NCBI GenBank assembly: GCA_964585635.1
Contig: CAZPEV010000003.1
Span: forward strand, 10,597-51,293
DNA: 40,697 bases
From: an uncultured Ignavibacteriales bacterium
GTDB lineage: Bacteria; Zixibacteria; MSB-5A5; GN15; JAAZOE01
Direction: 5' to 3'
Shown: positions 20,541-40,697 of the stretch, piece by piece
How the letters are laid out: every line of letters begins with the position of its first letter
How positions within the stretch are numbered: position 1 is the first letter of the stretch
Made by a program: the position numbers and the translations under genes
The notes under the pieces: model-generated
The model's input: the letters and a program-made list of their open reading frames with translations, nothing else
Database searches by the model: none
What the model was told of the DNA's origin: nothing

Positions 20541-20556
20541 TATCATCGACAACATG

Positions 20557-20716
20557 TTCCGGCCCCAGGGCGGTTAATAGGGAAGACGGTGCGAATCCGT
20601 CGCAGCCCCGCTACTGTGAGCGGCTACTAAAGGACCGATATCCACTCTTCCGGGCAGACCGGAAGGGGAAGGGGTCCTGACAGGATTGACGCCGCAAGCC
20701 AGGAGACCTGCCGGAA
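20557..20716 (+). promoter_or_regulatory. Cobalamin (B12) riboswitch aptamer
   Basis: GGTTAATAGGGAAGACGGTGCGAATCCGTCGCAGCCCCGCTACTGTGAGC matches the conserved core. CCACTC...GGAAGGGGAAGG and the B12 box AAGCCAGGAGACCTGCC are both present. The P1 stem candidate is TTCCGGC (20557-20563) with GCCGGAA (20710-20716). Confidence 0.9.
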
Positions 20717-20754
20717 CGGAAACCGAAATTCGGCAGCCCTCGCGGGAGGGAAAG

Positions 20755-21561
20755 TTGAATCGATCCCGGATGATTCCACTGGCTGCCGGGATTTTTTGTG
20801 CGAGCAATCCCGGCCCAATCATTTTTCGTCCAGTTGCGCTGTTGTGGATGGCCGGCTTGCTGATGCTGGCCGCGGGGGCGTGGGGTCAAACCACGGTCAA
20901 TCTCGCCGGCAGCGTCGTTGACGCCGTCGACGGCCATCGGCTTGGCGGTGCCGAAATTACCATCCTCAACAGCAGTTTTTCGGCCCGGACGGACCAGTTC
21001 GGCCGGTTTGTATTCGTCAGCCTGCCTGAAGGTCGCTGGCGGCTGCGCGTCGTCGCCGACGGATACGAGGCGCTGGTCAGCGATGAGGTTGAGGTTGTCG
21101 CTGATATTGCGCGCACTCTGGAAATGGCGCTCAGGCGAAAAATCTACGTTCTGCCGGATCATCGCACGGTCGGCCGGTATGAGACGCCGGCGCCGTCGTC
21201 GATTCGGCGGATCGATCGAGCGGCGATCCGGCAGTTGCAGGCATCCGATTTGGCGGATCTTCTCAATCGGATCGAGGGTGTCTCGGTACGGTCATCGGGA
21301 TCGGGGGGCGGGAGCCAGGTCAGTATTCGCGGCTGTGATTCCCGGCAGGTGCTGGTGCTGGTCGACGGCCAGCGAATAAACATGGCCGGCAGCGGCGAGG
21401 CCGATCTCGGCGCCGTTCCGTTTCAGGCGATCGAACGAGTCGAGGTGTATCGGGGAGGGGAGTCGGCCCGTTTCGGTCCCGATGCTCTTGGCGGCGTCAT
21501 CAGCATAATCACTCAAATCAAACGCTCTGATTCCGCCCCCGAGTTGGCGGCGCGGAAATAA
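20755..21561 (+). CDS. TonB-dependent receptor, N-terminal fragment (signal peptide, CarboxypepD_reg-like domain, plug), BtuB-like by context
   Basis: A TTG at 20755 lies 5 nt after GGGAGGG; an alternative ATG is at 20770. It has plug motifs (VSVRSSGSGGGSQVSIRG, RVEVYRGGESARFGPDALGGVISIIT). It ends at TAA 21559-21561, and the same reading frame continues as the barrel. Confidence 0.8.
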   Translation: MNRSRMIPLAAGIFCASNPGPIIFRPVALLWMAGLLMLAAGAWGQTTVNLAGSVVDAVDGHRLGGAEITILNSSFSARTDQFGRFVFVSLPEGRWRLRVVADGYEALVSDEVEVVADIARTLEMALRRKIYVLPDHRTVGRYETPAPSSIRRIDRAAIRQLQASDLADLLNRIEGVSVRSSGSGGGSQVSIRGCDSRQVLVLVDGQRINMAGSGEADLGAVPFQAIERVEVYRGGESARFGPDALGGVISIITQIKRSDSAPELAARK

Positions 21562-21591: not shown

Positions 21592-23076
21592 TTGACGGCG
21601 ACCGATCTGCTGCCATGGGGTGGCGTCAATACCAAGTTCGGCTATTTCTATCAGGGATCGAATGGAGATTTTGATTATCGATATACCGTCTCACCCCGTC
21701 CCGATCTGGCCGAGGAATACCGCGGCATCCGCCGCAACGCCGGCCGGGCCGGCCACAATTATTTTATGTCAGCAGGAGGGGGCCTGAGCAGGGCGATTTC
21801 GATTATGGCAACGGCGCAGGCGTATGCGTCCCGCGAAGGGCTTCCCGGCGCGGTTTCGTCGCCCGACACGACCTCCTGGAAAGAGGATCAGCGCCGGTCG
21901 ATCACGGTCGAGGTGGAGCGAGAGCGGTCGGCGGGATATGCCTGGGATTTGTCGACCGGTTTTTCGAGGCTGGAGCAATATTTTAATAATCGGGACGACC
22001 CCAGCCTGCCGGAGCGGTACGAAAATCGATTTATCAACGACATCGCGACCATGCGTGCTTCCCTGCGCCGGGTGCTTTGGCTCGGAAACGAGCTGATGAC
22101 GGGAGGGGAGGTCCGCCGCGATATTTTGTATCACGATGATTTCTATCGGCCGCAGGCCGCGATGGGGCGGACGGTGCGGGATGATATTGGCTTGTCCGTG
22201 ACCGATCAGCAGTCGCTTGACCTGCGGCGCGTCTTGCCGGCCGGCGCGATGGTGGTTGACTATGCCCTCCGCTGGGACGGCATCACCACCCGCCATGAGG
22301 CCGACACGGCCGGGCCGCAGAAAACGGCCGGCTGGTCGCACAAAGTGGGTGCCTCGATTTCAGGCGGCGGCCCGATTCGGGTTGCGGTTCGGGGCAGCTA
22401 TGGGACGTCGTATCGCCTGCCCGAGATCAACGCCCTGTTTTGGAAGGGGGATGTCCGGGCCGGCGGCAATCCGCAGCTGCGCCCGGAACGGGCGGAGCAT
22501 TCCGACGCCGGTATCGACCTGACGCATAACGGCCGGCTGAATCTGACGGTCGGTACGACCTATTTTCATTCGTTTGTCCGGGACCTCATCGTCTGGCAGC
22601 CGGGGTATCAGGAGGTCTGGAAGCCGGTCAATCTCGCTTCGGCCCGTATAACCGGTCGCGAGGACGTTATCCGGGTGGGGCTGTTCGATGATCATCTGCG
22701 GCTGAATTATCAGAACACCGTCACGACCGCCAAGAATCGTACGCCGGGTTCGAGCACGTTCAATAAGTCACTGACCTACCGGCCGCATTATATCACTCAG
22801 GTGGAGGCGGCCGGTTCGCTGTGGCGATTCCGGGCGACCTACCGTATCCGCTGGGTCGATATTCGGTACAACAAAGAGGCCAACACCAAATGGTACGATG
22901 CCTATCGACTCGACGACCTGGATCTGGCCTTCACGGCCGTCTGCTCGAGGATCAGCATCGAGGCGACCGGACGAGTGCGAAACGTCACCGATGCCGACTA
23001 TGTGCTGATCGGCCATTATCCGATGCCGGGTCGTGAGTGGGGGATTGACCTGGCGGCGACGTACCGGATAAAATAA
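21592..23076 (+). CDS. TonB-dependent receptor, beta-barrel fragment (same frame as 20755..21561)
   Basis: 494-aa ORF with alternating beta-strand patterns. It is in frame with the plug ORF: 21592 minus 20686 is a multiple of 3. The first in-frame start candidate after the TAA is a TTG. Confidence 0.75.
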   Translation: MTATDLLPWGGVNTKFGYFYQGSNGDFDYRYTVSPRPDLAEEYRGIRRNAGRAGHNYFMSAGGGLSRAISIMATAQAYASREGLPGAVSSPDTTSWKEDQRRSITVEVERERSAGYAWDLSTGFSRLEQYFNNRDDPSLPERYENRFINDIATMRASLRRVLWLGNELMTGGEVRRDILYHDDFYRPQAAMGRTVRDDIGLSVTDQQSLDLRRVLPAGAMVVDYALRWDGITTRHEADTAGPQKTAGWSHKVGASISGGGPIRVAVRGSYGTSYRLPEINALFWKGDVRAGGNPQLRPERAEHSDAGIDLTHNGRLNLTVGTTYFHSFVRDLIVWQPGYQEVWKPVNLASARITGREDVIRVGLFDDHLRLNYQNTVTTAKNRTPGSSTFNKSLTYRPHYITQVEAAGSLWRFRATYRIRWVDIRYNKEANTKWYDAYRLDDLDLAFTAVCSRISIEATGRVRNVTDADYVLIGHYPMPGREWGIDLAATYRIK

Positions 23077-28400: not shown

Positions 28401-29558
28401 GTGGATATGATTAAGACCGCTGCCGTCATGATTGCGGCCATGCTGCCTCTGTGGGGCGCGGCGGCGTCCGCGGAAGACGCCGTAAGCGTTGAGCCGTCAC
28501 TTTACCTGGGGCTGGCGGTTCCGATTCCCGATTCGGTTCCGGCGATGATCCTCGTCCCCTCTGCCGGGGGGGCCGTTCCCAACGGTTCCTATCCGGCGGT
28601 GCTCCTGGTAAAGAAGAACGGCAAAATCAAAAAGGTGTTGGCCGGTCCGGATTCGACCCGCTTTTATGAGCCGCTGACGGCGATTTCCAATAAGATTCGC
28701 TGTCGCTTCTTGAGGGGGCGAAAGCTCCATTTTCCGGTGGCCGTACCAGTGCGGCTGGAGTTTTCCAACAATGGCGGCAGTCAGAAGGCTGCCCTCCGTT
28801 TTCCGATTTCGACCGATTTGGTTTCCGATACGATGCTTCTCTTCGAGTTTTACGAACGTAACCGAGTGACGCCGCCATCCGTGACCATCATGCCGTCGCT
28901 TTTTTACCGTTTTGACCATACCGGGAAGGAACCGGTTTGCCTTACCATGACCGCCCATATGGCCCTGGATGAAGGGGGGAGGTTGGTCGATCTCTCTTTC
29001 CCAGGCGGGGCGCCAGGCTCGATGAATCATCAGGTGCAGGTGGCCTTGATGAATGCGGCCTTTGCCCCCGCATCGCTGGACGGCCGCGGCTGGCCCTGTG
29101 AATTCTGGGTGACTTTTCGGTTGTTCGACAACGTCAGGTATCCGTTCACGCCGTCGGCGCCGACGGACACAACCCGGACGCCATCCGTCACCGAGCGATT
29201 TGTCATGACCCGCTATTTCAATCCCCGCGATATATCCATCTGTCCCCTGCCCCGCCGCTATCCGTCCGGTATTATCCTGACCTCGGAGAACTTGTATGGA
29301 GCCCGCGGCACGGTGCGGGCCTTGGTACAAATCGATTCTGAGGGAGAGGTCAGCGGCATTTCGATTGCCGGCGCTTCCACGAGGCTGACGCAGGCTGCGC
29401 GAAAGGCAGTCAAGTTGACGCAGTGGTATCCGGCCGTCGGCCCAACCGGGGAAAGAGAGTCATTTTCCGGCGCGATCACGCTGGAGCTGGACGGATCGGC
29501 ACAGGTCGTATATATCCCCGAATGGGTGTCCGTTTGGCGCATTTTATGCGGGCTGTAA
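28401..29558 (+). CDS. Secreted hypothetical protein with TonB-C-terminal-like segment(s)
   Basis: 385 aa with a signal peptide (AAASAEDA); the start may be the ATG at 28407. The C-terminus GTVRALVQIDSEGEVSGISIAGASTRLTQAARKAVKLTQWYPA resembles the TonB_C fold signature. Confidence 0.55.
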   Translation: MDMIKTAAVMIAAMLPLWGAAASAEDAVSVEPSLYLGLAVPIPDSVPAMILVPSAGGAVPNGSYPAVLLVKKNGKIKKVLAGPDSTRFYEPLTAISNKIRCRFLRGRKLHFPVAVPVRLEFSNNGGSQKAALRFPISTDLVSDTMLLFEFYERNRVTPPSVTIMPSLFYRFDHTGKEPVCLTMTAHMALDEGGRLVDLSFPGGAPGSMNHQVQVALMNAAFAPASLDGRGWPCEFWVTFRLFDNVRYPFTPSAPTDTTRTPSVTERFVMTRYFNPRDISICPLPRRYPSGIILTSENLYGARGTVRALVQIDSEGEVSGISIAGASTRLTQAARKAVKLTQWYPAVGPTGERESFSGAITLELDGSAQVVYIPEWVSVWRILCGL

Positions 29559-29680
29559 TGTGTTGCGGGGTGTAGCGTTACGATTTCAATGAACAAATTG
29601 TGCGGGATTTTGGTTGAAATATATGGAGGAGTGGGGAGGATGTGTCAAGGAGGTGGTAAGGTGTTGTTTTACTGAAGGTT

Positions 29681-29701
29681 ATGAATCAATAATGGATTCA
29701 T
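29681..29701. promoter_or_regulatory. Palindromic operator candidate, ATGAATC-N7-GATTCAT
   Basis: A perfect 7-bp inverted repeat around AATAATG sits in an AT/GT-rich spacer upstream of the Ton cluster. It loosely resembles an AT-rich Fur-type box. Confidence 0.25.
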
Positions 29702-29787
29702 TAGCGGCACAGTTTTTGATTAGGGGAGGGAAACCATTGAGTGTTATGGGAAGAATCGGTCAAGTTCGTGGTAGAAAAGAATAGAAG

Positions 29788-30045
29788 ATGAGGTTGCAGC
29801 ATTATGTAAATATGGCCACGGCGCTGCTTGTGTTCCTGGGTGGCCTGGGGATTGTGTTCTACTTCCCGGATCGTCTGGCCATGCAGTACCGGGTGCTGAT
29901 CGGAGTTTTTGTGACGTTTTACTTTCTTTTACGGGTGGGCCAGAATCTGCTTGCGATCCAGCGGGATCGCCGGAAAGCGGAGCATGAACTCAAGGGTCTG
30001 GCAGGCGAGGAAATGGACGAATCGACCGGGGCAAAAAGGACTTGA
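29788..30045 (+). CDS. Small hypothetical two-TM membrane protein
   Basis: 85-aa ORF with two hydrophobic helices and a charged tail. The RBS is weak. Confidence 0.45.
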   Translation: MRLQHYVNMATALLVFLGGLGIVFYFPDRLAMQYRVLIGVFVTFYFLLRVGQNLLAIQRDRRKAEHELKGLAGEEMDESTGAKRT

Positions 30046-30069
30046 CATCGTGGGCGCAAGGCGTATTAT
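30042..30069 (+). promoter_or_regulatory. Predicted promoter of the TPR-exbBD-tonB cluster
   Basis: TTGACA (30042-30047), a 16-nt spacer, then TATTAT (30064-30069). Confidence 0.55.
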
Positions 30070-30113
30070 GATGATTTGGTTTTCGTTTGGCCATGAAAGG
30101 TGTGGCGGGTGAG

Positions 30114-31916
30114 ATGAGCGACAAGCGATTGAACGGGCGGCTCTTGGGGATGTTGCTTTGGCTGCTGGCGGGATTGGTTATGTCGGCGGCGGCATATGAT
30201 TTGCCCGTGGAGATAACGAATGCGTTGAGCCGTCACGATACGACCGCGGTCTTGGGGCAGATTGACGCGGCCATCAAGATTGACCCGACCTATGCGCCTT
30301 ATTTTTTGATCAAAGGACAGATTTATTATGCCCGGGGGAAATATCCTGAGGCATTGGCGCAGTTTGAAGAAGCCGTCAAGAAGAAACCGAAGCTGGATGA
30401 GGCCGCCTATTACCAGGGATTGGTGCTCCTGGAGCAGGGGAAGCTGACCGAGGCTGAAAAGATATTTGATGAGGGAATCAAGAAGGCCAAGGAGCAGAAG
30501 GCGCGGTTCCATAATGGCATGGGGTTGCTGCTGATCAAGCGCCAGGAGTATGCCAAGGCCGACGTGGAGTTCCGCAAAGCGATTCAGGTCGGTCCCGATC
30601 AGGCCGAGTTTCACGCCAACCTGGGTGACGCCAATTATTACGCCAAGATTTACCCGCTGGCCATCAGCGAATACAACTCCGTCATCGGCATGGACACGAC
30701 CTTTTTGGACGTCTATTTCCGGCTGGCGCGGGCCTATGTTGCCCAGAACCAGTATAATGAAGCGGTGGACCAGTTGCGCATCGTATTGACGCGCGACAGC
30801 CTGTATACCAACGCCTGGCAGGAAATCGGCAAGCTGTACACGCTGGCGGGGCTGTCGGCGCGCGATGCCGAGACCAAGGAACAGCGCTTCAAGGAAGCGA
30901 TCGGCTCCTATCGCAGATATCTGGAGCTATCCCGGGATTCGGCTGACGGCGAGGTTTTTTTCAATTTGGGCCGGGCCTATTTCAACCTGGGCGGGTATCC
31001 GCAGGCGGACACGGCCTTCCAGCGGGTGCTCTCGCTGGGAAACACGCCGGCCAATATCAATCTGTACCTGGGACGGACCAAGATCGGCGAGGAGAAATAT
31101 ACCGAGGGTATCGAGTTGCTCCAAAGGCATCTGGAGCAGTTGCGGGCCAAAGACCCCGGGTACGTGTTTACGGGCGAGGACGCCGATATCTTCCGGCGCA
31201 TGGCCGACGGCTACAAGGCGATGCAGGATTATGCCAACGCCGCGGATAATTATGCCAAGGCCTTTGCCCTCGATTCGACGAACCCCCGGGTGGCGGTCGA
31301 CGCGGCCCTGGCGTTTCACCAGTTGAAGAACTATCCGGAGGCGCTCAAGTACTATGAAAAGCGGATCGCGTTGGGGCCGGACGCCTGGAATATGTTCCTC
31401 AACGCGGCTTATTGCACGCTGGCTTTGGAGGATTATCCCAAATCGGCGGAGTATCTCAAACGGGTCATAGCCCTTGATTCCATGAATGTCAAGGCGTTGA
31501 CCCTGTTGTCGAATACCTATCTGTATCAGATGCAGAATTGCGATGAGGGGATTGCCTGGACCAAGAAGTTGCTGGAGATCGACTCGACCAACTGCGATGC
31601 TATCAAGGGCTTGGGATTCGCCTATTTCAGCGACAACATCTGCCAACCGGATTATCTGAAGGCGATTTCATATTTTACCCGGGCGTTGAGTTGCTATCGC
31701 GCCGCCGGCAGCGACAATTGCAGCCATAGCGACCTGTTGCTGTTTATCGCCCAGGCGGATCAAATGTACGGCATCAAGATGGACGAGGTTGGCAATAAAC
31801 CGGAAAAGAAGAAATACATGAAGGAAGCCTTCGACGGCTATAAGCTGGTGCTAAAGTGCGATCCCGGTAATGCCAGCGCCCAAAAGGGGAAAAAGGACAC
31901 CGAGTTTGAATTCTAA
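30114..31916 (+). CDS. Secreted TPR-repeat protein
   Basis: The ORF opens at 30087. The ATG at 30114 gives a canonical signal peptide (MSDKRLNGRLLGMLLWLLAGLVMSAAA). Many 34-residue TPR-like repeats follow (A..Y..A...DP......LG..Y). Confidence 0.8.
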   Translation: MSDKRLNGRLLGMLLWLLAGLVMSAAAYDLPVEITNALSRHDTTAVLGQIDAAIKIDPTYAPYFLIKGQIYYARGKYPEALAQFEEAVKKKPKLDEAAYYQGLVLLEQGKLTEAEKIFDEGIKKAKEQKARFHNGMGLLLIKRQEYAKADVEFRKAIQVGPDQAEFHANLGDANYYAKIYPLAISEYNSVIGMDTTFLDVYFRLARAYVAQNQYNEAVDQLRIVLTRDSLYTNAWQEIGKLYTLAGLSARDAETKEQRFKEAIGSYRRYLELSRDSADGEVFFNLGRAYFNLGGYPQADTAFQRVLSLGNTPANINLYLGRTKIGEEKYTEGIELLQRHLEQLRAKDPGYVFTGEDADIFRRMADGYKAMQDYANAADNYAKAFALDSTNPRVAVDAALAFHQLKNYPEALKYYEKRIALGPDAWNMFLNAAYCTLALEDYPKSAEYLKRVIALDSMNVKALTLLSNTYLYQMQNCDEGIAWTKKLLEIDSTNCDAIKGLGFAYFSDNICQPDYLKAISYFTRALSCYRAAGSDNCSHSDLLLFIAQADQMYGIKMDEVGNKPEKKKYMKEAFDGYKLVLKCDPGNASAQKGKKDTEFEF

Positions 31917-31964
31917 CTACCTGGGCAAGCTTGGTGTCGGAGACTTGTGGTAACAGGAGAATGT

Positions 31965-32780
31965 ATGGCTGAGGGAGATAACAAGACACGCGCGGTCAAC
32001 TACAGCGACGAGCGGTTCAAGTATATCGGTTTTGAGGTGTTTCCCGGTAAGGCGGGCGACATCTTCAAATCGGATGAAGAACGGAAATCGCTCGTGGCCA
32101 AGGTCATGGCCAAGTTTGGTCACAGCGAGAGCGAGGTCCGGGACCGGTGTACCCTGATGGAAGCGAGAGTGACCAAGACGGAACGGGGAGTTTTGACGCT
32201 GGCGGCGGTGCTGATGCTGGTGGCGCTTTTTATTCCCTGCTTCTCGGGGTATTTTGAAATCGTCAACGTCAAGCAGGTTCCGGTGGAAGCGCCGGCGGCC
32301 GAGGCGGCCGTCCCGGGAGTTCCCGTGGAGATGACCACGGTGACGACCGTTTCCCACGATAATCGTTCGCTGACCGGCATCGGCGCCCTCATCGGCCTCG
32401 GCACCTTCGGCGGGATGGTTTTCTCCGGCGGATTCGCCCTGATGCTGACCGGCCTGCTGTTGCTCCTGTACCTTTTGAGCTGTGTCGCCCTGGGCTTATT
32501 CAACCTGCATATTCTGTACCGGGTAAAGATTCCCGATCCCGACGCCTACGTCCTGTACTTGAAGAAGATGCTTCGGTACAACTGGATTCCGGTTCTCATC
32601 TGGCTGGCCATGCTGCTCTTGTCGATCGTGGGGGCCTCCTATGGATTCAATCCCAAGGGGATGGTTAAGCAGGTGGGTGATTCGTACGGGATGGGGGCCT
32701 TCATCGGCCTGTCTTCTTTCGGCATATATCTGTCGCTGGGTGGATTCTTGATTGCGTCCCTCAAGGGCAAGGAAATTTAG
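31965..32780 (+). CDS. Hypothetical polytopic membrane protein
   Basis: An ATG at 31965 follows GGAGA. A soluble N-terminal region of about 65 aa is followed by 4-5 TM helices. It sits between the TPR gene and exbB. I recognise no family. Confidence 0.65.
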   Translation: MAEGDNKTRAVNYSDERFKYIGFEVFPGKAGDIFKSDEERKSLVAKVMAKFGHSESEVRDRCTLMEARVTKTERGVLTLAAVLMLVALFIPCFSGYFEIVNVKQVPVEAPAAEAAVPGVPVEMTTVTTVSHDNRSLTGIGALIGLGTFGGMVFSGGFALMLTGLLLLLYLLSCVALGLFNLHILYRVKIPDPDAYVLYLKKMLRYNWIPVLIWLAMLLLSIVGASYGFNPKGMVKQVGDSYGMGAFIGLSSFGIYLSLGGFLIASLKGKEI

Positions 32781-32822
32781 ACTGATAGATAGACACAAAT
32801 AGATAGCGGAGGAGTTGAAAAG

Positions 32823-33581
32823 GTGAAACAGACAATTTTCGTCACGGTGAACACGCTGGTTTCCTTTTGTATCGGCTATGTCGTTTGGGGAATCATCCTG
32901 AAGGGCACGCAGGAAGGGACGATTGCGCATTCAGTGTACAAGGGCGGCCCGCTGGTGGTCATCCTGATCGCGGTCCTGTTGATGTTGATCGCCTTCGTGG
33001 TGGAGCGTTTTTTGTCGCTGCGGACGGCCAAGGGCAGCAGTTCGGTGCAGGTCTTTTTCAAGAACCTGATCACCCATTTGCAGGGCAACGATTTTGAGTC
33101 GGCGCTGGCGGCCTGCGACAAACAGCGCGGGACGACGGCCAACGTGTTGCGGGCGGGTATCGAGCGTTACATGCGGGTGAAAGACGATAAGGCGATGGAT
33201 CTGGAAAAGCGGATGGCCGCGACCCAGACCGCCATCGAAGAAGCCAACGCCCTGGAAGGACCGCTCTTGGAACGGAATTTGATTGCGTTGTCGACGATCG
33301 CCTCGATCGCCACTATGATCGGTCTGTTGGGAACGACGATCGGCATGATCCGCGCCTTTGCGGCTACCGGTCATACGGCCGGCGGCGTGATCGACGCCCA
33401 GCAGTTGGCGACCGGCATTTCCGAGGCGCTGGTGAACACCGCCGGCGGGCTGATCTCCGGTATCACGGGGATTTTCTTCTACAACTTCTTTGTCAATAAG
33501 GTCGACGCCTTCAACTATACCACCGACGAAGCCACCTATGAAGTGATGCAGTTGTTGAAGGCCAAGGAGGCGGCAAAGTAG
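32823..33581 (+). CDS. exbB: MotA/TolQ/ExbB proton-channel protein
   Basis: 252 aa with three TM helices. The motifs LLGTTIGMIRAF and GISEALVNTAGGL are typical of ExbB/TolQ. Confidence 0.88.
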   Translation: MKQTIFVTVNTLVSFCIGYVVWGIILKGTQEGTIAHSVYKGGPLVVILIAVLLMLIAFVVERFLSLRTAKGSSSVQVFFKNLITHLQGNDFESALAACDKQRGTTANVLRAGIERYMRVKDDKAMDLEKRMAATQTAIEEANALEGPLLERNLIALSTIASIATMIGLLGTTIGMIRAFAATGHTAGGVIDAQQLATGISEALVNTAGGLISGITGIFFYNFFVNKVDAFNYTTDEATYEVMQLLKAKEAAK

Positions 33582-34052
33582 ATGAAGATCAAAAAGAAAC
33601 GCCGGGTCGGCATTAAGATTGACATGACCCCGATGGTTGACATCGCGTTTCTGCTGCTGATTTTCTACATGTCAACCACGCAGTTCAAACCGCCGGAGAA
33701 AAAGACGGTCACGCTGCCGACGTCCCATTCGCAGATTTCGCTACCCGATAAGGATGTCATCAACGTGACGGTGACGAAGGACGATTCGATCTTTGTCGAC
33801 TATATAATCAAGCGGACGGTTAACATCGACGGCAACGACGTGTCGATGCCGACCCGCATTTATGATGAGGCGACGACGGCGACGGTGGCCTCGCTGATCA
33901 ATGCCGCCCGTGTCCGCAACCGGTTTGCGTTCTTGGTGATCAAGGCCGACAAGGATTCAAGTTACGGGACGATGGAAGGGATCATGAAGACGATGCAGGA
34001 ACAGAACCTGACCCGTTTTCAGATCGTGACCAATATGGAGCAAGACCTATAA
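33582..34052 (+). CDS. exbD: ExbD/TolR biopolymer transport protein, copy 1
   Basis: 156 aa. The segment IDMTPMVDIAFLLLIFYM contains the conserved Asp-containing TM helix. Its start abuts the exbB stop. Confidence 0.88.
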   Translation: MKIKKKRRVGIKIDMTPMVDIAFLLLIFYMSTTQFKPPEKKTVTLPTSHSQISLPDKDVINVTVTKDDSIFVDYIIKRTVNIDGNDVSMPTRIYDEATTATVASLINAARVRNRFAFLVIKADKDSSYGTMEGIMKTMQEQNLTRFQIVTNMEQDL

Positions 34053-34067
34053 AGGTGGTGACGAGCA

Positions 34068-34694
34068 ATGGCTGGAGCAGATGTAGGCGGTGATCGACCG
34101 AAAAAAGCGGCCAAGGGCGGTGTTCGTCGCCCGAAGCACCGGGTCGGCATCCGTATCGATATGACGCCGATGGTCGATATCGCGTTTCTCCTGCTGATCT
34201 TCTACATGGTGACGACGGTGTTTTCCATGCCGCAGGCGATGGAAGTCAACCTGCCGCCGGCGGAGGACAAGCAGGAGCAATTGAAGATCAAAGAGTCTAA
34301 CGTGTTGACCATCCACGTGGATGAGAAAAACAGGTTTTACTGGAATATCGGCCGCGACCTTCCGCTGGCGTTCCCCGTGGACTCGCTGAGGACGCTTTTG
34401 GTCGGCCAGAGCCAGGCCAACGCCAAGCTGAACACGCTGATCATTATCAATCCCAAGGCGAAGTACAAATCGATGGTGGACGTCCTGGACGAAATCGACT
34501 TGATCGAGCGCTCCTTCAACGCCGCCGTGGCGAAGGAGATGGGGGTGACGCCCCAGGAGTTCGACGATCCGAATAATAAGCGGGCGGCCGAGTTCAAAGA
34601 GCGGAAATTCTCGTACCGGTACGCGATGGCGCCGTGGGAAGACCGCGACACCCGTATCATTGAGGCTGTCCTGTCCGGCCGAGGGGGTGAGTAA
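34068..34694 (+). CDS. exbD: ExbD/TolR biopolymer transport protein, copy 2
   Basis: 208 aa with the same TM motif (IDMTPMVDIAFLLLIFYM). It has a longer C-terminal domain than copy 1. Confidence 0.85.
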   Translation: MAGADVGGDRPKKAAKGGVRRPKHRVGIRIDMTPMVDIAFLLLIFYMVTTVFSMPQAMEVNLPPAEDKQEQLKIKESNVLTIHVDEKNRFYWNIGRDLPLAFPVDSLRTLLVGQSQANAKLNTLIIINPKAKYKSMVDVLDEIDLIERSFNAAVAKEMGVTPQEFDDPNNKRAAEFKERKFSYRYAMAPWEDRDTRIIEAVLSGRGGE

Positions 34695-34696
34695 TC

Positions 34697-35425
34697 ATGG
34701 CACAAGCGATGCATATTCCCTACGGTGCGTATGAACTGAAGCGCGATTACCAGAAGAACATGTTTCTGGGGACCGGGTTTTCGGCGGCCCTGACGTTGCT
34801 GTGCATTCTCGGGGTATGGCTCTACGGCGTCATTACCTATGAGGATGTCGGCGACGCCACCAATGTCATCCGCATCAAGACGATCGCCGAATTGGGTGCG
34901 CCGCCGTCGCTGGCGGCCAAGCCGCCGCAGATCGATATCGCCAAGCCGCAGATGGCAGCGCCCAAGGTCGGCATTCCGACGCCGGTCGCCGATGAAGAGG
35001 CGGTCGATGAGAATGCGGTTATCGCCACTCAGGATGAGCTGCAGGAGATCAACACTCCGACCCTGGCGCCGACCGAGGGGGGCGACAAGCAACTGGTGAT
35101 TGATATCCCGGAGGACGATTATATGCCTCCGCCGGACCAATTCGTCCCCGTTGAGGTGTATCCGGAGCAGATCTATGAAGAACCGGCCGAGTACCCTCGT
35201 CTGGCGCGGGAAGGTGGTTTTACGGCCTCGGTGATACTGCAGGCGTTTGTCGATAAGACCGGCACCGTGAAGAAAGCGCAGGCCGTCAAGTGTACGCGAC
35301 CGGGGATGGGGTTTGAGGAAGCCGCGGTCAAGGCGGCTTACAAATGCAAGTACCGGCCCGCGATTCAGAACGGCAACCCCATCGGGGTCTGGATTTCGTA
35401 TACGTACGACTTTGTGATTGAATGA
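34697..35425 (+). CDS. tonB: Energy transducer TonB
   Basis: 242 aa with an N-terminal TM anchor and a Pro/Glu-rich linker. The C-terminal TonB_C signature is present (EYPRLAREGGFTASVILQAFVDKTGTVKKAQAV...AAVKAAYKCKYRPA). Confidence 0.88.
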   Translation: MAQAMHIPYGAYELKRDYQKNMFLGTGFSAALTLLCILGVWLYGVITYEDVGDATNVIRIKTIAELGAPPSLAAKPPQIDIAKPQMAAPKVGIPTPVADEEAVDENAVIATQDELQEINTPTLAPTEGGDKQLVIDIPEDDYMPPPDQFVPVEVYPEQIYEEPAEYPRLAREGGFTASVILQAFVDKTGTVKKAQAVKCTRPGMGFEEAAVKAAYKCKYRPAIQNGNPIGVWISYTYDFVIE

Positions 35426-35432
35426 TTTTATT

Positions 35433-35463
35433 CCGGGGGAAAGAGACCGTCTCTTTCCCCCGG
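35433..35463 (+). terminator. Strong hairpin after tonB (terminator candidate without a U-tract)
   Basis: A perfect 14-bp stem (CCGGGGGAAAGAGA / TCTCTTTCCCCCGG) with a 3-nt loop. It is preceded by TTTTATT and not followed by a T-run. Confidence 0.55.
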
Positions 35464-35614
35464 CTAATCCCCTCACGGGACGGCCGCCCGTCCCAGATAC
35501 TTCCCTCACGCAGCAGCGCGCCAAGGACTAGTGGTGCAGCGTCCCCGACGGTGCACGGATTGACCTGTCGAGAAAAAAGGCAAGACAGATGAGGCCTTTT
35601 GCTCCGAGGGACAG

Positions 35615-35920
35615 ATGCGCTATTCGGTCAAATCCACGGCGGCCGTTCAAACCGGGGTGTCGCCGTTACCGTATGCGGCCACCGGGACGATGCTTTTCCA
35701 ACCGGTCCGGATTGAAGACGTGCGGCTGGCGGCGATTTTGGGGATTCTTATAATCACCATGCTGCTGTCGATCTATATGGTCATGACTCGTCCGGTCCGT
35801 CCATCAATCCCGGAAAATGATCAGATCGGTTTTTACAGCAGTGCCTATGCCTGGTGCGTCCCCGAAACGTCAAACGACGGTTTCGGGATTTCCCCCAGAG
35901 GTTTGTCGCCGACCGTTTGA
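35615..35920 (+). CDS. Possible small single-TM protein (weak call)
   Basis: 101-aa ORF with GAGGGA 3 nt upstream, one hydrophobic helix (LAAILGILIITMLLSIYMVM), and third-position G/C usage similar to neighbouring genes. No similarity recognised. Confidence 0.3.
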   Translation: MRYSVKSTAAVQTGVSPLPYAATGTMLFQPVRIEDVRLAAILGILIITMLLSIYMVMTRPVRPSIPENDQIGFYSSAYAWCVPETSNDGFGISPRGLSPTV

Positions 35921-36127
35921 TAATGAGGCTGCGTTGGCGTTGATCGGCCATGGGGCGTTTAACGCAACCGTTCCCTTTTTGCAGAGAAACGACCCCCGGC
36001 GATCCACTCACTCGGGGGACGTCGGCAAATTCGACTCCCGATAATTCCATCCCCTTGTAGCTCTTTTGGCTTCTGCCACAACCTGCGGTAGTACTCCCTG
36101 GATAAACAAAAAATCAGAAAAAATTGC

Positions 36128-36156
36128 TTGACACCTGCACATATGTTCAGTACTTT
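36128..36156 (+). promoter_or_regulatory. Possible promoter of the zinc-ribbon/helicase pair
   Basis: TTGACA (36128-36133), a 17-nt spacer, then TACTTT (36151-36156). It is preceded by an A-rich tract. Confidence 0.4.
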
Positions 36157-36196
36157 ATGCTTAAGTCGATAATCCAGTACAGACAAGGAGTCGCAT

Positions 36197-36436
36197 ATGT
36201 TGTCTCAGAAACCGGACGGGTTCCCGCCCTCTTCGGCCAGCTCCCAGGCGCCTCTGTGGGTGGCGGCAGGGGGGCAGGAGCCGGTAACCGGGCGGCCGGC
36301 GGTTGAATTTGTCGTCGGGTCAGAGGCTCAGCCTTTCCCAAGGTATGGGGAAAATTGCCCGGAATGTGGAGGCTGGCTGGCTCGGGCCGGCGGCTGTTTC
36401 TCCTGCGTGACCTGCGGCTGGGGGCGATGCGGCTGA
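36197..36436 (+). CDS. Small protein with a C-terminal six-Cys zinc ribbon
   Basis: 79 aa. The ATG follows AAGGAG. The N-terminal ~50 aa are Pro/Ala/Gly/Ser-rich. The C-terminus is CPECGGWLARAGGCFSCVTCGWGRCG. The stop lies 28 nt before the helicase ATG. Confidence 0.65.
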   Translation: MLSQKPDGFPPSSASSQAPLWVAAGGQEPVTGRPAVEFVVGSEAQPFPRYGENCPECGGWLARAGGCFSCVTCGWGRCG

Positions 36437-36464: not shown

Positions 36465-39089
36465 ATGCGCAGAAGATTGGCCAAGTACGCGATCCCCGGG
36501 CCGATTCTGGCCGAATGGGAGCAGCGATTCGGCGGAAGGTTGTTGCCGTTGCAGGTCCGGGCCCTTGAGGAATACGGCTTGCTGGACGGTGCTTCCCTGT
36601 TGATTTCGGCTCCGACCTCGTCGGGGAAGACGTTCTGCGGCGAAATGGCGATTGTGCGCGCGGCGCAGGAGCGGAAGAAGGGAATTTTTCTGACTCCACT
36701 GAAGGCGGTGACGGAGGAGAAATATCGTCAGTTTCGAGACGGTTACGGCCGCCTCGGTCTTCGCCTGGTGATCGGCACCAGAGATCATCCGGAGTATGAC
36801 ACCGCCATCGAAAGCGGCCGATTCGACATCGCGGTCATGGTATATGAGAAATTCAATGCTCTCTTGGTGAACAGCTTCGATCTGCTGGGGCAGGTCGGGA
36901 CGCTGGTCGTCGACGAACTGCAGATGCTTGAGGATGAAGAGCGGGGACCGCAGTTGGAGTTGGCGCTGACGAAGCTGCTGTTCTCGCGGTATCGGCCGCA
37001 GATCGTGGGGCTCTCGGCGGTCCTGGGGGAGGCGACCGGATTGGCGCAATGGCTGGGGTGTCGTCTCCTTTTGGACAACAACCGTCCGGTGGAACTGCGG
37101 CGGGGCGTGGCTGCCTCGGGGACATTCCATTACCGCTGTCACAACAGTGGGGAGGTTGGCCGGGAGGCGTTTGCGGAGGGTGAGGATCGGGGGCGAACGT
37201 TGTTCGAGAATATCAAGGCGGTCTTTGACGGCGGCCACCAAGCCCTGGCATTTCTCAAGTCGCGCCAGGAGACGGTGGTAGCGGCGGCGGGGTTTGTCGA
37301 TCATGCCGGACTGGTCCCCCTGGCGGAGAACGAGGCCTGGTGTGCGTCCCGTCTCGATGATGAAGAGCCCTCAACCCTGACGGAGCAATTGAAGCGATTG
37401 CTGGCCTGCGGGGTCGCCTTTCACAACGCCGACCTGACCGCCAATCAGCGGGCGGTGATCGAGGAAGCTGCCCGGGCCGGGATGATCAAGGTGGTTTTTG
37501 CCACGACGACGCTGGCGACCGGCATCAACCTGCCGGCGGCGACGGTGTTCATCGAGGCCCAGAAATATTGCCCGCAGGGGTATGCCGGCCGGCCCGGCTT
37601 GGCGCCGTTGTCTTGGGCGGAATATGAGGGCATGTCGGGCCGGGCCGGCCGTACGGGGTGGATCGAGGAGGCGACCCCGGGCAGGGCGGTTCTTTTCGCC
37701 GGCAGCGAATTGGAGAAATCGATTCTGTGGGACTATTACATTGAGCGACATCCAATGCCGCTGGAGTCGCATCTGGCCGGACTCGCACCGGCCGATATCA
37801 TCGTGGACCTGTTCGGGTGCGATTTGATCGACCACCCCGATCAGGTGGCCGAGGTGCTATCCCGGTCGTATGGGTCGTCGCGTAATCAATTACATGCCAA
37901 ACAGAAAGACGACACATATGAAGAACTTCTTGATAAGGGGTTCCTTGGCCGGGAGGGTGACCTCTGGTGGGCGACACCCTTGGGGAAAGCGACTGCCGCA
38001 ACTGGACTGAGCGTCGCCGGAGCCGATTACCTGGCCGGGCCGTTCCGGGCGCTGGAGTCGGATGACGAGGGACAGATTATCTATCACGCGCTGCATGCTC
38101 CTGAGGGGCAGCGGATTTATCTCCCCGGAAGATCCGGAGCCCGGTCGAGATATCGTTCTTCTCCCTTCCTCTCAGCCTCGAGTGAGGAGAATCCCTTGGT
38201 GCGGGAGTTGACCAATCTGCAGCGGGAATTGATGCCGGATGAATATGACCGCCTGCGATTGACCTTTCTGCTGACCGACTGGATGGCGGGCAAGCCGGCT
38301 CTCGATATCGAGACGAAATATCACCTGTATCTGGGAACGATCGAGGGTGTGGCGCGGCAGGCGGCCTGGCTCTTGTCATCGGCGGCGGCGGTGATCGGGG
38401 CGCGTGCTCGACATGCCTCGTTCCCGCGCCGGCTGGAGGAGATGGCCTTCTCGGCGGCGGTTGGGCTTCCACCGGAGTTGAGGGAGGTCCATCGCGAATT
38501 CGGCGGCCTGCTTCATCGCGGGGAATTGATGGCTCTGAGAGGGAAAGGAATCGCCGGGATGGCGGATTTGGCCCGGGCGGGCGGGGCGGTGGTGCGGGAG
38601 GTGGTCGCCTCAGAAGCCCGGCGCGGCAAGGTTGAACAACGCCTGCAATCGATAAAGGAGGATGAAATGCAGAAATTCGCTGATGGTACGTCGGGAGCGA
38701 TTACCCGACCGGAGTCGATTGAGATCGACGGCACGCTGGTGCGGGAGCGATACTTGATCCGGATCAACGGCCGATCGATAAAGCTGACCGGAAAGTCATT
38801 CAAGTACCTGGTCAGCCTGGTCTGGTCGCGATTGACCAAGGACTACGGCTGGCTGTACAAGGAGGACTTGGAGTTCGGCTTCAACCAGGCCCGGTATCTC
38901 TACCGTCTGCGTCAGGAGATCTGGCGGGATTTTCTGCCGGATTGGCCGCTGTATGAAAACAATCGGGCGGGATATTATCGTCTGGTGGCCGATCGCGAGC
39001 GCATCCGGGTGAACGTCGACGCCTTGCGGGGCATCCCTGACCATCAAATCCAGCAGATGGCCAGAGACCTTCTGCCGACCGCCAACTGA
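36465..39089 (+). CDS. Hel308/Ski2-like superfamily 2 helicase with a C-terminal OmpR/PhoB-like winged-helix extension
   Basis: The ATG at 36465 follows GGAAGGAGGAGG. SF2 motifs are present: I SAPTSSGKT, II VVDELQ, III SAV, V TTTLATGINLPA, VI MSGRAGRTG. A later HhH-like segment reads LRGKGIAGMADLARAG. The final ~120 aa (IRINGRSIKLTGKSFKYLVSLVWS...LYRLRQEI...RAGYYRLV) fit the Trans_reg_C pattern. Confidence 0.85.
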   Translation: MRRRLAKYAIPGPILAEWEQRFGGRLLPLQVRALEEYGLLDGASLLISAPTSSGKTFCGEMAIVRAAQERKKGIFLTPLKAVTEEKYRQFRDGYGRLGLRLVIGTRDHPEYDTAIESGRFDIAVMVYEKFNALLVNSFDLLGQVGTLVVDELQMLEDEERGPQLELALTKLLFSRYRPQIVGLSAVLGEATGLAQWLGCRLLLDNNRPVELRRGVAASGTFHYRCHNSGEVGREAFAEGEDRGRTLFENIKAVFDGGHQALAFLKSRQETVVAAAGFVDHAGLVPLAENEAWCASRLDDEEPSTLTEQLKRLLACGVAFHNADLTANQRAVIEEAARAGMIKVVFATTTLATGINLPAATVFIEAQKYCPQGYAGRPGLAPLSWAEYEGMSGRAGRTGWIEEATPGRAVLFAGSELEKSILWDYYIERHPMPLESHLAGLAPADIIVDLFGCDLIDHPDQVAEVLSRSYGSSRNQLHAKQKDDTYEELLDKGFLGREGDLWWATPLGKATAATGLSVAGADYLAGPFRALESDDEGQIIYHALHAPEGQRIYLPGRSGARSRYRSSPFLSASSEENPLVRELTNLQRELMPDEYDRLRLTFLLTDWMAGKPALDIETKYHLYLGTIEGVARQAAWLLSSAAAVIGARARHASFPRRLEEMAFSAAVGLPPELREVHREFGGLLHRGELMALRGKGIAGMADLARAGGAVVREVVASEARRGKVEQRLQSIKEDEMQKFADGTSGAITRPESIEIDGTLVRERYLIRINGRSIKLTGKSFKYLVSLVWSRLTKDYGWLYKEDLEFGFNQARYLYRLRQEIWRDFLPDWPLYENNRAGYYRLVADRERIRVNVDALRGIPDHQIQQMARDLLPTAN

Positions 39090-39131: not shown

Positions 39132-39160
39132 TTGACAAAATCAGACACCGGCGGTAAACT
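39132..39160 (+). promoter_or_regulatory. Predicted promoter of the lon-like gene
   Basis: TTGACA (39132-39137), a 17-nt spacer, then TAAACT (39155-39160). Confidence 0.45.
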
Positions 39161-39207: not shown

Positions 39208-40697
39208 ATGATAATAAAGTCCCGCAAACATTTACCGCTGGTGGCCTCGGACCGGGAAGCGATTATGCCGGTGTTGCCGCTCAATTCCGTAGTTATATTT
39301 CCGGGTGAAATGCATGCCATCCTCATGGGGCGCAAGGAAAACCTGGCCCTGTTGAAAGGTGTGGCTGAGGAGAATGGCCCTTTGATTGTGTCCTTCGCCC
39401 CCCCGCACGGCGGCGGCGAAGGGGAGGAGGTTCTCTCTGAGGTCGGGGTGTTGGCCCGAGTGCAGTCGACCAAATCGGCGCCGGCCGGTTCGCGAATGGT
39501 CATGCTTGAGGGAATACGCCGAATCGTCATCCGCGAGATTCGCGAATCGGCCCCGTTTCTTCGGGCGCTCGTTGCGGAAGTTGACGACAGCGACGGTGGC
39601 GCCGACCGGCGAGCTGCGGCCCGAGCCGAGATAATCGATCTGTTGTCTCGCCTGATCAGATTCGACAGCCGCTATTCGGGCGACCTGCTGAAAGCGCTCG
39701 AGGAAATCGCCTCGGCGGGGGATTTTGCCGACCGCGTCGCGGCGGCCGTTCATTTCTCCCCGGCCGAGAAGCAGGAAATTCTCGAGGCCGTGACGATTCC
39801 CGAACGCCTGGCCACGCTGCACAGGTTTCTGGAGGAAGAAGTTGAGAAGGCCTCTCTGGCGGTGCAGATAAACGGCAAGGTCACCGAGACGTTGGAGAAG
39901 AAACGGCGCGAAAGTTTTCTGCGCCAGCAATTGATGGAAATTCGGCGGGAATTGGGCGAAGAATTTGTCGAGGAGGATCTCTCCCGTCTCTATCAGCACC
40001 AGGTTCGCAGCAGCAAGGGTCTGCCGAGCGAGGTCGCCGAGCGTCTGCGGTTTGAGGCGGATCGTCTGGGCCATTTGTCGTCCTCATCGACCGAGTATGG
40101 TTCGATCAAGAACTACCTGGAATTCGTGCTGGCCCTGCCGTGGGATAAGCCGGCGGCCGGTGCCTATGACCTGGTGGCGGTCGAAAAGGGCATCAATGCC
40201 GACTATTATGGATCCGGGCCGATCAAGGAACAGGTCCTGGAATATCTGGCGGTCAGGCAGTTGAGCCAAGGGGGGCATGATTTACCGGTGTTGTGTCTGG
40301 CCGGCCCGGTGGGAACCGGCAAGGCCTCGCTGGTGCGGGCGATCGCCGGCGCCACCGGCCGCCAGTTTGTCCGCCTCAACGGCGCCAGCTTGGTGACGGT
40401 CGCCGACATCAAGGGGGCGCATCGCGCCGAAGTCGGCTCCGGATCGGGGCAGTTGGTCCAGGCCATCAAGCAATACGGATCATTCGATCTGGTGATGTTT
40501 CTTGAGGATATCGAATACGTCATCGAGTCTGAAGACACCAACGCCCTGTTGGCCCTGATGGAGGCGATCGATCCTCGTCACAACTATCATTTTATCGATA
40601 ACTTTCTGGGGATACCCCTCGATTTCTCCCGCATTCTTTTTGTCCTGGGGATATCGTATGTCGACAATTTCCCCGAGCCGTTTTCGCACCACCTCGA
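39208..40697 (+). CDS. lon: LonA-type protease homolog, 3-prime truncated by the window end, with degenerate AAA+ motifs
   Basis: This open frame is missing from the ORF track because it has no stop within the window. The N-terminus MPVLPLNSVVIFPGEMHAILMGRKENL is a Lon N-domain signature. The AAA+ region is LCLAGPVGTGKASLVRAIAGATGRQFVRL...LVMFLEDIE. The start may be 39208 or the ATG at 39265. The 280-aa minus-strand ORF at 39232..40074 is its shadow. Confidence 0.85.
   Translation, partial: MIIKSRKHLPLVASDREAIMPVLPLNSVVIFPGEMHAILMGRKENLALLKGVAEENGPLIVSFAPPHGGGEGEEVLSEVGVLARVQSTKSAPAGSRMVMLEGIRRIVIREIRESAPFLRALVAEVDDSDGGADRRAAARAEIIDLLSRLIRFDSRYSGDLLKALEEIASAGDFADRVAAAVHFSPAEKQEILEAVTIPERLATLHRFLEEEVEKASLAVQINGKVTETLEKKRRESFLRQQLMEIRRELGEEFVEEDLSRLYQHQVRSSKGLPSEVAERLRFEADRLGHLSSSSTEYGSIKNYLEFVLALPWDKPAAGAYDLVAVEKGINADYYGSGPIKEQVLEYLAVRQLSQGGHDLPVLCLAGPVGTGKASLVRAIAGATGRQFVRLNGASLVTVADIKGAHRAEVGSGSGQLVQAIKQYGSFDLVMFLEDIEYVIESEDTNALLALMEAIDPRHNYHFIDNFLGIPLDFSRILFVLGISYVDNFPEPFSHHL

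Follow-up and report, generated by a model that had tools for sequence, protein, structure and literature searches.

The present analysis concerns a 40,697-nucleotide stretch of DNA (hereafter the window) from an uncultured bacterium of the Zixibacteria lineage (assembly GCA_964585635.1, contig CAZPEV010000003.1, positions 10,597 to 51,293 of the forward strand), and in particular a helicase gene whose product combines a Hel308-type core with a C-terminal winged-helix module, referred to below as the tail. The gene is a single long open reading frame (ORF) of the + strand, which can be read from 36444 (TTG) or 36465 (ATG) to 39089. The ATG at 36465 is the correct start, since it is preceded by the Shine-Dalgarno sequence GGAAGGAGGAGGAT and since the aligned homologs start with MR or MK at the equivalent position, a few of them being N-terminally extended or start-truncated. 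Translation confirmed the ORF 36465-39089 (+) and its landmarks at the coordinates given by an initial annotation made from the sequence alone. The features of the gene are as follows, the boundaries of the five core domains being approximate.

36465..39089, + strand: helicase gene, 874 amino acids (aa) plus stop; five-domain Hel308-type core, linker and C-terminal winged-helix module.
36465..37064, + strand: RecA1 lobe (approximately residues 1-200), placed by Pfam DEAD (residues 31-188), the alignment with 2va8 and the invariant columns; motifs Walker A APTSSGKT (residues 49-56), Ia PLKA, II DELQ and III SAV.
36912..36923, + strand: motif II, DELQ (D150, E151, L152, Q153), from the translation; it stands where DExH is expected.
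37065..37754, + strand: RecA2 lobe (approximately residues 201-430), placed by Pfam Helicase_C (residues 307-398); motifs IVa FHNADL (319-324), V TTTLATGINLPA and VI GRAGR (392-396).
37755..38009, + strand: domain 3, the winged helix of the Hel308 core (approximately residues 431-515), placed by the model and its superposition.
38010..38468, + strand: domain 4, the 'ratchet' with the long helix 623-647 (approximately residues 516-668), placed by the model, Foldseek and Helicase_dom4_arc.
38469..38612, + strand: domain 5, helix-hairpin-helix-like (HhH), including LRGKGIAGMADLARAG (approximately residues 669-716), placed by the PRK02362 alignment and the model.
38613..38717, + strand: long connecting helix (717-741), then a linker (739-751) that varies in length and is modelled at low confidence, from the model and the family alignment.
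38718..39071, + strand: C-terminal winged-helix module, residues 752-869, from the AlphaFold2 model, Foldseek and the signature.

In sequence comparison the helicase assignment lies well clear of chance, and the relation to Hel308 extends over nearly the whole core. Pfam recognises the DEAD (1.5e-20) and Helicase_C (1.4e-07) families, while Helicase_dom4_arc (residues 592-646) falls below its threshold with 24.3 as compared to 27 bits, although it is precomputed on most homologs; HHH_5 matches the domain 5 region in some homologs, and a match to DEXQc_Suv3 is sub-threshold. The NCBIfam Hel308-type model PRK02362 aligns at 7.5e-86, with residues 10-735 covering profile positions 8-708 of 739, and helicase_Hel308 (NF040935) at 5e-63. 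The best relative of solved structure by sequence is Hel308 of S. solfataricus (2va8, 1.9e-51); behind it come further Hel308/Hjm entries, ASCC3, Slh1, Pol theta and Brr2. Homologs number 1408 at E<=1e-10; the top 120 of them share 36-94% identity with the helicase and, except for one fragment (P0034), cover it by 98-100%.

The full-length AlphaFold2 model, built with 83 family members, has a predicted local distance difference test score (pLDDT) of 87 and a predicted template modelling score (pTM) of 0.78. Foldseek comparison of this model with the PDB placed 2va8 first (E 2.9e-39), then 2zj5, 2zj2, 2zj8 and 2p6r, the next tier being the Pol theta helicase domain and then Brr2. The superpositions on Hel308/Hjm span 700-750 columns at E 3e-39 to 1e-35, with template modelling (TM) scores of 0.82-0.87 normalised to targets of about 690 aa. 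The first rank of Hel308/Hjm in the full-length comparison shows that all five Hel308 domains are present in the modelled helicase, and the five-domain Ski2/Hel308 layout of the initial annotation is thus upheld by the PRK02362 alignment, by 2va8 and by the fold. In the model, domain 3 runs from a helix at 442-451 to strands at 494-497 and 500-503 and a helix at 505-513, and domain 5 comprises helices 670-679, 685-693, 699-705 and 707-713. The HhH-like segment LRGKGIAGMADLARAG, also pointed out in the initial annotation, is present at approximately residues 691-706, within the two short helices 685-693 and 699-705.

The alignment of the 83 sequences further showed that the catalytic columns are invariant, namely P50, T51, S52, G54 and K55 of Walker A, P78, L79 and S184 in RecA1, and F319, H320, D323, L324, T347, T349, G353, G392, R393 and G395 in RecA2. 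Read together with the 2va8 alignment, it shows that the family retains Walker A, the arginine finger and motifs Ia, V and VI. Three motifs differ from those of Hel308, as listed below.

Motif II: DELH in Hel308, DELQ in the Zixibacteria family.
Motif III: SAT in Hel308, SAV in the Zixibacteria family.
Motif IVa: F/YHHAGL in Hel308 (YHHAGL in the 2va8 alignment), FHNADL in the Zixibacteria family.

The DELQ of motif II, noticed in the initial annotation at 36912-36923, proved to be a property of the family, as DExQ occurs in 116 of the 120 homologs and D150, E151 and Q153 are invariant among the 83 sequences. The aligned position of 2va8 reads DELH, so that the helicase departs from the DExH type of Hel308. 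DExQ alone would be no sign of a dead enzyme, because Suv3, an active helicase family with its own Pfam model, has DExQ as well. Motif IVa keeps the aromatic residue and the first His and has other residues in place of the second His and the Gly; N321 is nearly invariant. In Hel308/HELQ, this motif (F/YHHAGL) has been reported as the element that governs switching between annealing and unwinding (PMC13623763, PMC10484726).

The tail is among the most conserved parts of the family in the alignment, and its signature KSFxY...GW..K...E.G.NQ.RY.YRL...ENNR.G.YRL...D. is found in 119 of 119 full-length homologs. In the window, 38715-39000 translates to SIEIDGTLVRERYLIRINGRSIKLTGKSFKYL...ENNRAGYYRLVADRE, reading SIEIDG...KSFKYL...NQARYLYRLRQEI...ENNRAGYYRLVADRE. 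An AlphaFold2 model of residues 745-874 (39 sequences) reached pLDDT 90.9 and pTM 0.87. Its predicted topology is beta1-3, alpha1, beta4, alpha2, alpha3 and a beta-hairpin wing, with an extra beta-alpha-alpha; the elements, in the numbering of the tail model, are strands 8-15, 18-23 and 26-30, helix 32-47, strand 52-54, helices 55-58 and 64-78, and strands 86-88 and 93-96. Nearly all of the top 50 Foldseek matches of the tail in the PDB are OmpR/PhoB-type DNA-binding domains (among them BaeR, NsrR, VicR, CadC, CosR, PhoP, GlnR, ArlR, ToxR, RstA and PhoB), with TM scores of 0.45-0.63 per target and 11-22% identity. The AlphaFold and Foldseek comparison hence bears out that the C-terminal ~120 aa form a separate added domain and no part of Hel308 domain 5, and the tail fold is OmpR/PhoB-like as judged from the model.

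At the level of sequence the likeness is far fainter. Pfam gave no family at E<=10 for the tail alone and no tail family at E<=1 for the whole protein. The PDB search by phmmer with the tail sequence returned nothing but a chance match to Cas9 (E 0.93), and the profile of helicase tails (A2) found a weak, in-register match to the ArlR domain (E 0.3) among PDB sequences. A short, local match of the same profile to the EpiP protease (E 0.004, 48 residues) was rated spurious, because the fold comparison gives it no support. As no genuine OmpR-type domains were found in 1.2 Mb of loci around relatives, the comparison profile (A5) was made of ten OmpR/PhoB DNA-binding domains validated against Pfam, where they score 73-107 bits with Trans_reg_C (PF00486, gathering score 26.2 bits). 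Against this profile, hhalign aligned the helicase tails over 57 columns (P 0.0017, probability 15%) and the stand-alone relatives described below (A3) over 79 columns through the wing (P 4.2e-4, probability 34%), both in register with the fold alignment. Remote homology of the tail to OmpR/PhoB domains is therefore plausible from these alignments. The initial annotation had assigned the region to the OmpR/PhoB or Trans_reg_C type; this stands for the fold, to which OmpR/PhoB/CadC/ToxR DNA-binding domains are the best match, and not for the family, since Pfam Trans_reg_C is silent and the profile-profile signal is weak, so that 'OmpR/PhoB-type' is valid at the fold level only. By any sequence criterion the tail is no Trans_reg_C member, and it belongs to a family for which Pfam has no model.

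The stretch before the tail differs in character from the domains on either side, with pLDDT below 50 at residues 739-746 of the full-length model and with a linker that is poorly conserved, indel-rich and of variable length (columns ~830-880 of the family alignment). Because this stretch is both of low confidence and variable in length and sequence, the tail is probably tethered to the core in a flexible manner.

The module also occurs without the helicase. When 1.84 billion representative proteins were searched exhaustively with a profile, 654 matched at E<=1e-3, and among the best 150 of these are 82 complete proteins of ~115-220 aa (typically ~125 aa) which contain hardly anything beyond the module; this count is an upper bound, as some are probably helicase fragments (e.g., P0176/P0270, beside Lon at a contig end). 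Stand-alone genes were located at 4176-4556 of locus L087, 235-624 of L092, 5989-6366 of L091, 7001-7402 of L093 and 7001-7369 of L090. On two independent phage contigs the gene stands one to two genes upstream of a terminase-portal-capsid block; on an IMG/VR contig it lies downstream of YqaJ-RecT; another copy sits within a phage-like run of small ORFs, and one within a nucleotide-metabolism cluster (NrdR, ribonucleotide reductase (RNR), dUTPase, dCMP deaminase and thioredoxin). None of the 82 proteins matched PHROGs, and Pfam offered no family for them, the best being one Trans_reg_C match at E 0.011 (1 of 82). The tail found nothing at E<=0.2 among the BFVD viral structures and no tblastn match in the INPHARED isolate phages. 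A pattern scan of IMG/VR recovered one locus only, and a word-indexed search with the divergent stand-alone alignment A3 recovered five proteins only.

The comparison of fused and free modules points to a constrained surface. Of the 82 stand-alone proteins, 71-98% keep the polar residues found to be invariant among the helicase tails (K777, S778, W796, E803, N807, Q808, R810, Y811, R814, E831, N832, G836, Y838, R839 and D859); these include the residues on alpha3, the putative recognition helix, which carries Asn, Gln, Arg and Tyr side chains, and on the wing. In contrast, the ten OmpR/PhoB domains of A5, which have different DNA targets, share only four invariant columns. Since the polar surface is retained across the phylum and in the stand-alone proteins, as compared to four columns in the OmpR/PhoB set, the module seems, as far as sequence conservation can tell, to be built for the recognition of one fixed ligand; a surface fixed in this way speaks against variable, sequence-specific targeting.

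A second small gene accompanies the helicase and lies immediately upstream of it.

36197..36436, + strand: mini-gene of 79 aa with a Cys6 zinc ribbon at its end; ORF with an AAGGAG Shine-Dalgarno sequence, its stop 28 nucleotides (nt) before the helicase ATG.

The product ends in CPECGGWLARAGGCFSCVTCGWGRCG, with the pattern CxxC-x10-CxxCxxC-x4-C. In at least 50 of 61 Zixibacteria loci an equivalent ORF of 60-80 aa immediately precedes the helicase, with a median of 57 nt between the two; its consensus is CP[DE]CGxxM[VI]RxGxCFxCPxCG[FWY]xxC, the eight invariant columns of the alignment including all six Cys. The family has 239 members, all small and 'hypothetical', whose named entries are from Zixibacteria in all but two cases, and it matched no Pfam model. 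The mini-gene is probably co-transcribed with the helicase, and the conserved gene order suggests that its product is a zinc-ribbon subunit or cofactor of the enzyme. A likeness of the Cys6 ribbon to the C-terminal tail of class II ribonucleotide reductase was not supported: the one RNR compared ends in ...NCPECDAA, and no RNR occurs among the 239 relatives. A TTGACA-17-TACTTT element upstream of the mini-gene, seen by eye, failed the promoter scan, and terminator-like sites in the scan were at chance level.

The distribution of the helicase was followed in a scan of one genome per GTDB species, in which the module-bearing helicase was found in 165 species genomes. The best 80 of these are almost all labelled Zixibacteria or related or unclassified FCB-group bins, and every one of the 80 has the helicase core immediately before the module, the few short ORFs being frameshifted assemblies. 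The named homologs are Zixibacteria or FCB-group entries called 'DEAD/DEAH box helicase' or, by JGI, 'replicative superfamily II helicase'. The helicase is thus phylum-wide in Zixibacteria and vertically inherited. Neither this distribution nor the mini-gene nor the free-standing modules figured in the initial annotation. The synteny ExbB-ExbD-ExbD-TonB, mini-gene, helicase and Lon is conserved in the window and in distant relatives, with Lon within 1.5 kilobases downstream in 61 of the 72 loci that have enough sequence. A divergent clade (P0112; tail signature AKSFKYL...G[DE]NQTRYLHRL) has, in the one locus examined (L005), neither of the usual neighbours, the zinc-ribbon mini-gene and Lon, and its helicase is followed there by Peptidase_M78 and DUF4411 genes; the partnership is therefore not universal.

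39208..40697, + strand: Lon protease, N-terminal 496 aa, running off the window; Pfam LON_substr_bdg 5.3e-30 and AAA 1e-10.

A promoter-like TTGACA-17-TAAACT site at 39132-39160, between the helicase stop and the lon start, suggests that lon may have its own promoter. The ORF 39232-40074 (-) was rejected as a gene, as it is antisense to lon and probably spurious. Upstream, the region 28401-35425 (+) encodes a TonB_C protein, a 609-aa TPR protein, an unassigned 277-aa ORF, ExbB, two ExbD paralogues and a second TonB_C protein, and further ExbD/TonB duplications precede the helicase in the related loci L001, L004 and L094. The gap from TonB to the mini-gene (35426-36196) is unusually long (~770 nt); its only ORF (35615-35920, 101 aa) has a hydrophobic stretch and no Pfam match, and the gap holds no Rfam family at the gathering threshold.

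Elsewhere the window carries genes of core metabolism (Dxr, an RseP-type protease, CcmF, 2-oxoacid dehydrogenase E1 and a TonB-dependent receptor), and the guanine-cytosine (GC) content is even across it and not deviant. The locus is a chromosomal housekeeping context, neither a defence island nor a mobile element. A cobalamin riboswitch (20543-20729, +; Rfam, 108 bits) lies upstream of the TonB-dependent receptor and is overlapped by the listed start of the ORF 20686-21561. The receptor is split into this ORF (Plug/CarboxypepD_reg) and 21592-23076 (beta-barrel), with a stop and a gap of about 30 nt between them; the split may reflect a pseudogene, an error in sequencing or a gene that truly has two parts.

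Taken with the domain content, the observations described above make it most probable that the helicase works like Hel308. By analogy to archaeal Hel308, HELQ and Pol theta, the motor would hydrolyse ATP, move 3'-to-5' on single-stranded DNA and unwind or remodel forks, D-loops and similar branched recombination intermediates. The tethered winged helix may keep the motor either on the duplex, close to where the single strand enters, or on a single fixed partner; it would then be a loading or positioning device, in a logic like that of the RQC region of RecQ, and not a transcription-factor-like reader of loci. The Cys6 zinc-ribbon protein, probably co-transcribed, would be a second lineage-specific accessory. 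The explanation favoured here, and held as reasonably probable, is an anchoring role of the tail: bound to duplex DNA or to a single fixed partner, it would load or position the motor.

Several observations weigh against this explanation. All curated Hel308 equivalog models scored 213-289 bits as compared to cut-offs of 887-1216 (PRK02362 289 as compared to 887, NF040935 213 as compared to 1200), and since every cut-off was missed by a wide margin, strict functional orthology with archaeal Hel308 is unproven, and the scores place the helicase on a distant branch and not among the equivalogs. The replacement of H by Q in motif II and of T by V in motif III could alter the coupling of ATPase to unwinding. 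Foldseek matches the tail weakly, the best E being 6.8e-3 and none <=1e-3; the hhalign probabilities of 15-34% are low, and the model is uninformative on the docking of the tail to the core. The associations with the zinc ribbon and Lon come from gene order alone, and a promoter-like site stands before lon. The substrate (DNA or RNA) and polarity of the enzyme, like the ligand of its tail, are predicted.

The first alternative gives the helicase a role linked to transcription. Domains of the OmpR/PhoB family activate transcription and contact RNA polymerase, and as the tail shares their fold, it might bind RNA polymerase or promoter-type DNA and make the enzyme a transcription-linked helicase, acting in R-loop removal, in transcription-replication conflicts or in termination. 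The stand-alone phage versions would then be late-gene regulators using the same contact; the two phage contigs do carry the module one to two genes before the late block, the typical position of such a regulator, and a polar surface common to helicase-fused and phage proteins fits a conserved partner, e.g., RNA polymerase. However, the core most resembles DNA-repair helicases (Hel308, Pol theta) in structure, not transcription factors, other stand-alone copies lie near YqaJ-RecT or RNR/dUTPase, and the contact of the tail with RNA polymerase is putative, for which reasons this explanation is regarded as unlikely. Also unlikely, and put forward as a speculation, is a broader proposal in which the tail is a new mobile adaptor-domain family (signature KSFxY...GW...NQxRYxYRL...ENNRxGxYRL), common to the helicase and small phage proteins and directed to one fixed target, either a host protein like RNA polymerase or a DNA structure; the helicase and its zinc-ribbon subunit would form an archaeal-type pathway of fork restart or recombination control native to a bacterial phylum, which phages tap or antagonise via free copies of the adaptor. 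The fixed surface bears differently on the idea of the initial annotation that the tail targets the helicase to specific loci, by reading certain sites in the chromosome, in plasmids or in phages. Sequence-specific DNA binders do have this fold, and the putative recognition helix offers Asn, Gln, Arg and Tyr side chains that would suit base contacts; but the recognition-helix and wing residues are constant across the phylum and in the phage stand-alone proteins, whereas families that read different sequences vary there, as the four invariant columns of the Trans_reg_C set illustrate, and the tail falls outside Trans_reg_C by sequence; nor did a candidate repeated operator turn up, though no search was aimed at one. 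Targeting of this kind is thus disfavoured and considered distinctly unlikely.

The remaining alternatives concern the core and its surroundings as much as the tail. A role in RNA decay or ribosome rescue, as an RNA helicase of the Ski2/Mtr4 kind, would agree with the significant sequence and fold likeness to Brr2, Mtr4, Ski2, ASCC3 and Slh1, and with the DExQ that is also found in the RNA/DNA helicase Suv3, for which Pfam gives the sub-threshold DEXQc_Suv3 match. Yet every RNA helicase ranks below Hel308/Hjm and the Pol theta helicase domain, by sequence as well as by structure, the protein has a Hel308-type HhH domain 5, and it has neither the arch insertion of Mtr4/Ski2 nor a Sec63 unit, which leaves such a role very unlikely. 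The initial annotation had also raised interference with plasmids or phages, and the helicase might be a defence enzyme of the Hachiman HamB or PDC-M23B kind, with the stand-alone phage tails as decoys. PDC-M23B (8.6e-31) and HamB are indeed its best PADLOC models, HamB is among the PDB sequence matches (8vx9, 3.2e-16), and the module is common to phage proteins. These PADLOC matches, however, reach only the RecA lobes (residues ~26-199 and 308-398), the gene adjoins neither HamA nor a nuclease partner, and the module is fused to a helicase core in all 80 loci examined; the neighbourhood, with its phylum-wide conserved ExbBD/TonB, zinc-ribbon and Lon genes, a wider window of core metabolism and an unremarkable GC content, is one of conserved housekeeping synteny and speaks against a defence island. 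Defence is accordingly rated the least probable of these explanations. A motor of Hel308 type, loaded or positioned by its tail on duplex DNA or on one fixed partner, thus remains the preferred interpretation.

The architecture, which the initial annotation had not recognised, was likewise not described in the literature searched, which yielded no paper on a Hel308-type helicase of bacteria that has a tail or partner of this kind. Hel308/HELQ is described there as conserved 'from archaea to humans', and Ski2-like helicases in general are noted in bacteria (PMC13623763). As a previously unannotated architecture it is well supported, its function is inferred, and the organisms are known here from metagenome-assembled genomes alone. 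A complete five-domain Hel308-type enzyme across a bacterial phylum would offer a bacterial setting for the study of Hel308, along with natural variants of the activity-tuning motifs (DExQ, SAV and an altered motif IVa). The tail and the zinc-ribbon mini-protein represent two protein families without a Pfam model, and the occurrence of the tail in a host helicase and in phage proteins gives a testable handle on the recruitment of superfamily II (SF2) motors by accessory domains. The practical impact is modest, because Zixibacteria are known here from metagenome-assembled genomes only and the function is deduced from sequence and models.

The closest of the known systems is archaeal Hel308/Hjm (S. 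solfataricus 2va8, A. fulgidus 2p6r and P. furiosus 2zj2), which has the same order of RecA1, RecA2, winged helix, ratchet and HhH. The Zixibacteria helicase is only 24-26% identical to it and below the NCBIfam equivalog cut-offs; it has DELQ, SAV and FHNADL (the Hel308 consensus of motif IVa being taken from PMC13623763), is bacterial, and adds a C-terminal linker and winged-helix module of about 160 aa and a zinc-ribbon gene. HELQ and the Pol theta helicase-like domain are second-tier matches (1e-35 by sequence; fold E ~1e-34, TM 0.73-0.78), and resemble it in having a Hel308 core extended by lineage-specific accessory regions. The accessory is an N-terminal disordered and PWI-like region in HELQ and a polymerase fusion in Pol theta (PMC13623763), as compared to a C-terminal winged helix in the Zixibacteria helicase. 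Bacterial Lhr offers another Ski2-like core, extended at its C-terminus by a lineage-specific domain that contributes a DNA-repair function (PMC10953399, PMC7437997). Lhr models match the helicase weakly or partially (TIGR04121 at 2.4e-21 over residues 17-198, PRK13767 and PRK09751 marginally), and Lhr is without the Hel308 arrangement of ratchet and HhH, its C-terminal domain being unrelated to the tail. The Hachiman HamB and PADLOC defence helicases are recognised by a full-length match and an adjacent HamA, a combination which the Zixibacteria helicase does not show.

For the tail, the nearest comparison is with the OmpR/PhoB effector domains (PF00486; PhoB, OmpR, BaeR, VicR, PhoP and the receiver-less CadC/ToxR), which have the same order of secondary structure and in-register echoes in sequence, LTxKSFxYL of the tail corresponding to LTxxEFxLL and ENNRxGYYRL to xTVRGxGYxL. 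The tail differs from them in its low identity (11-22%), in the extra C-terminal beta-alpha-alpha and in its many invariant polar residues; it is either helicase-fused or a free protein of ~125 aa, and is not joined to a receiver domain or a membrane anchor. RecQ, an SF2 3'-5' DNA helicase, is positioned at branch points by the zinc module and the duplex-binding winged helix of its RQC region. The likeness to RecQ is one of functional analogy alone; the zinc module of the Zixibacteria system is a separate polypeptide and its winged helix is of the OmpR/PhoB type, carried on what is probably a flexible tether.

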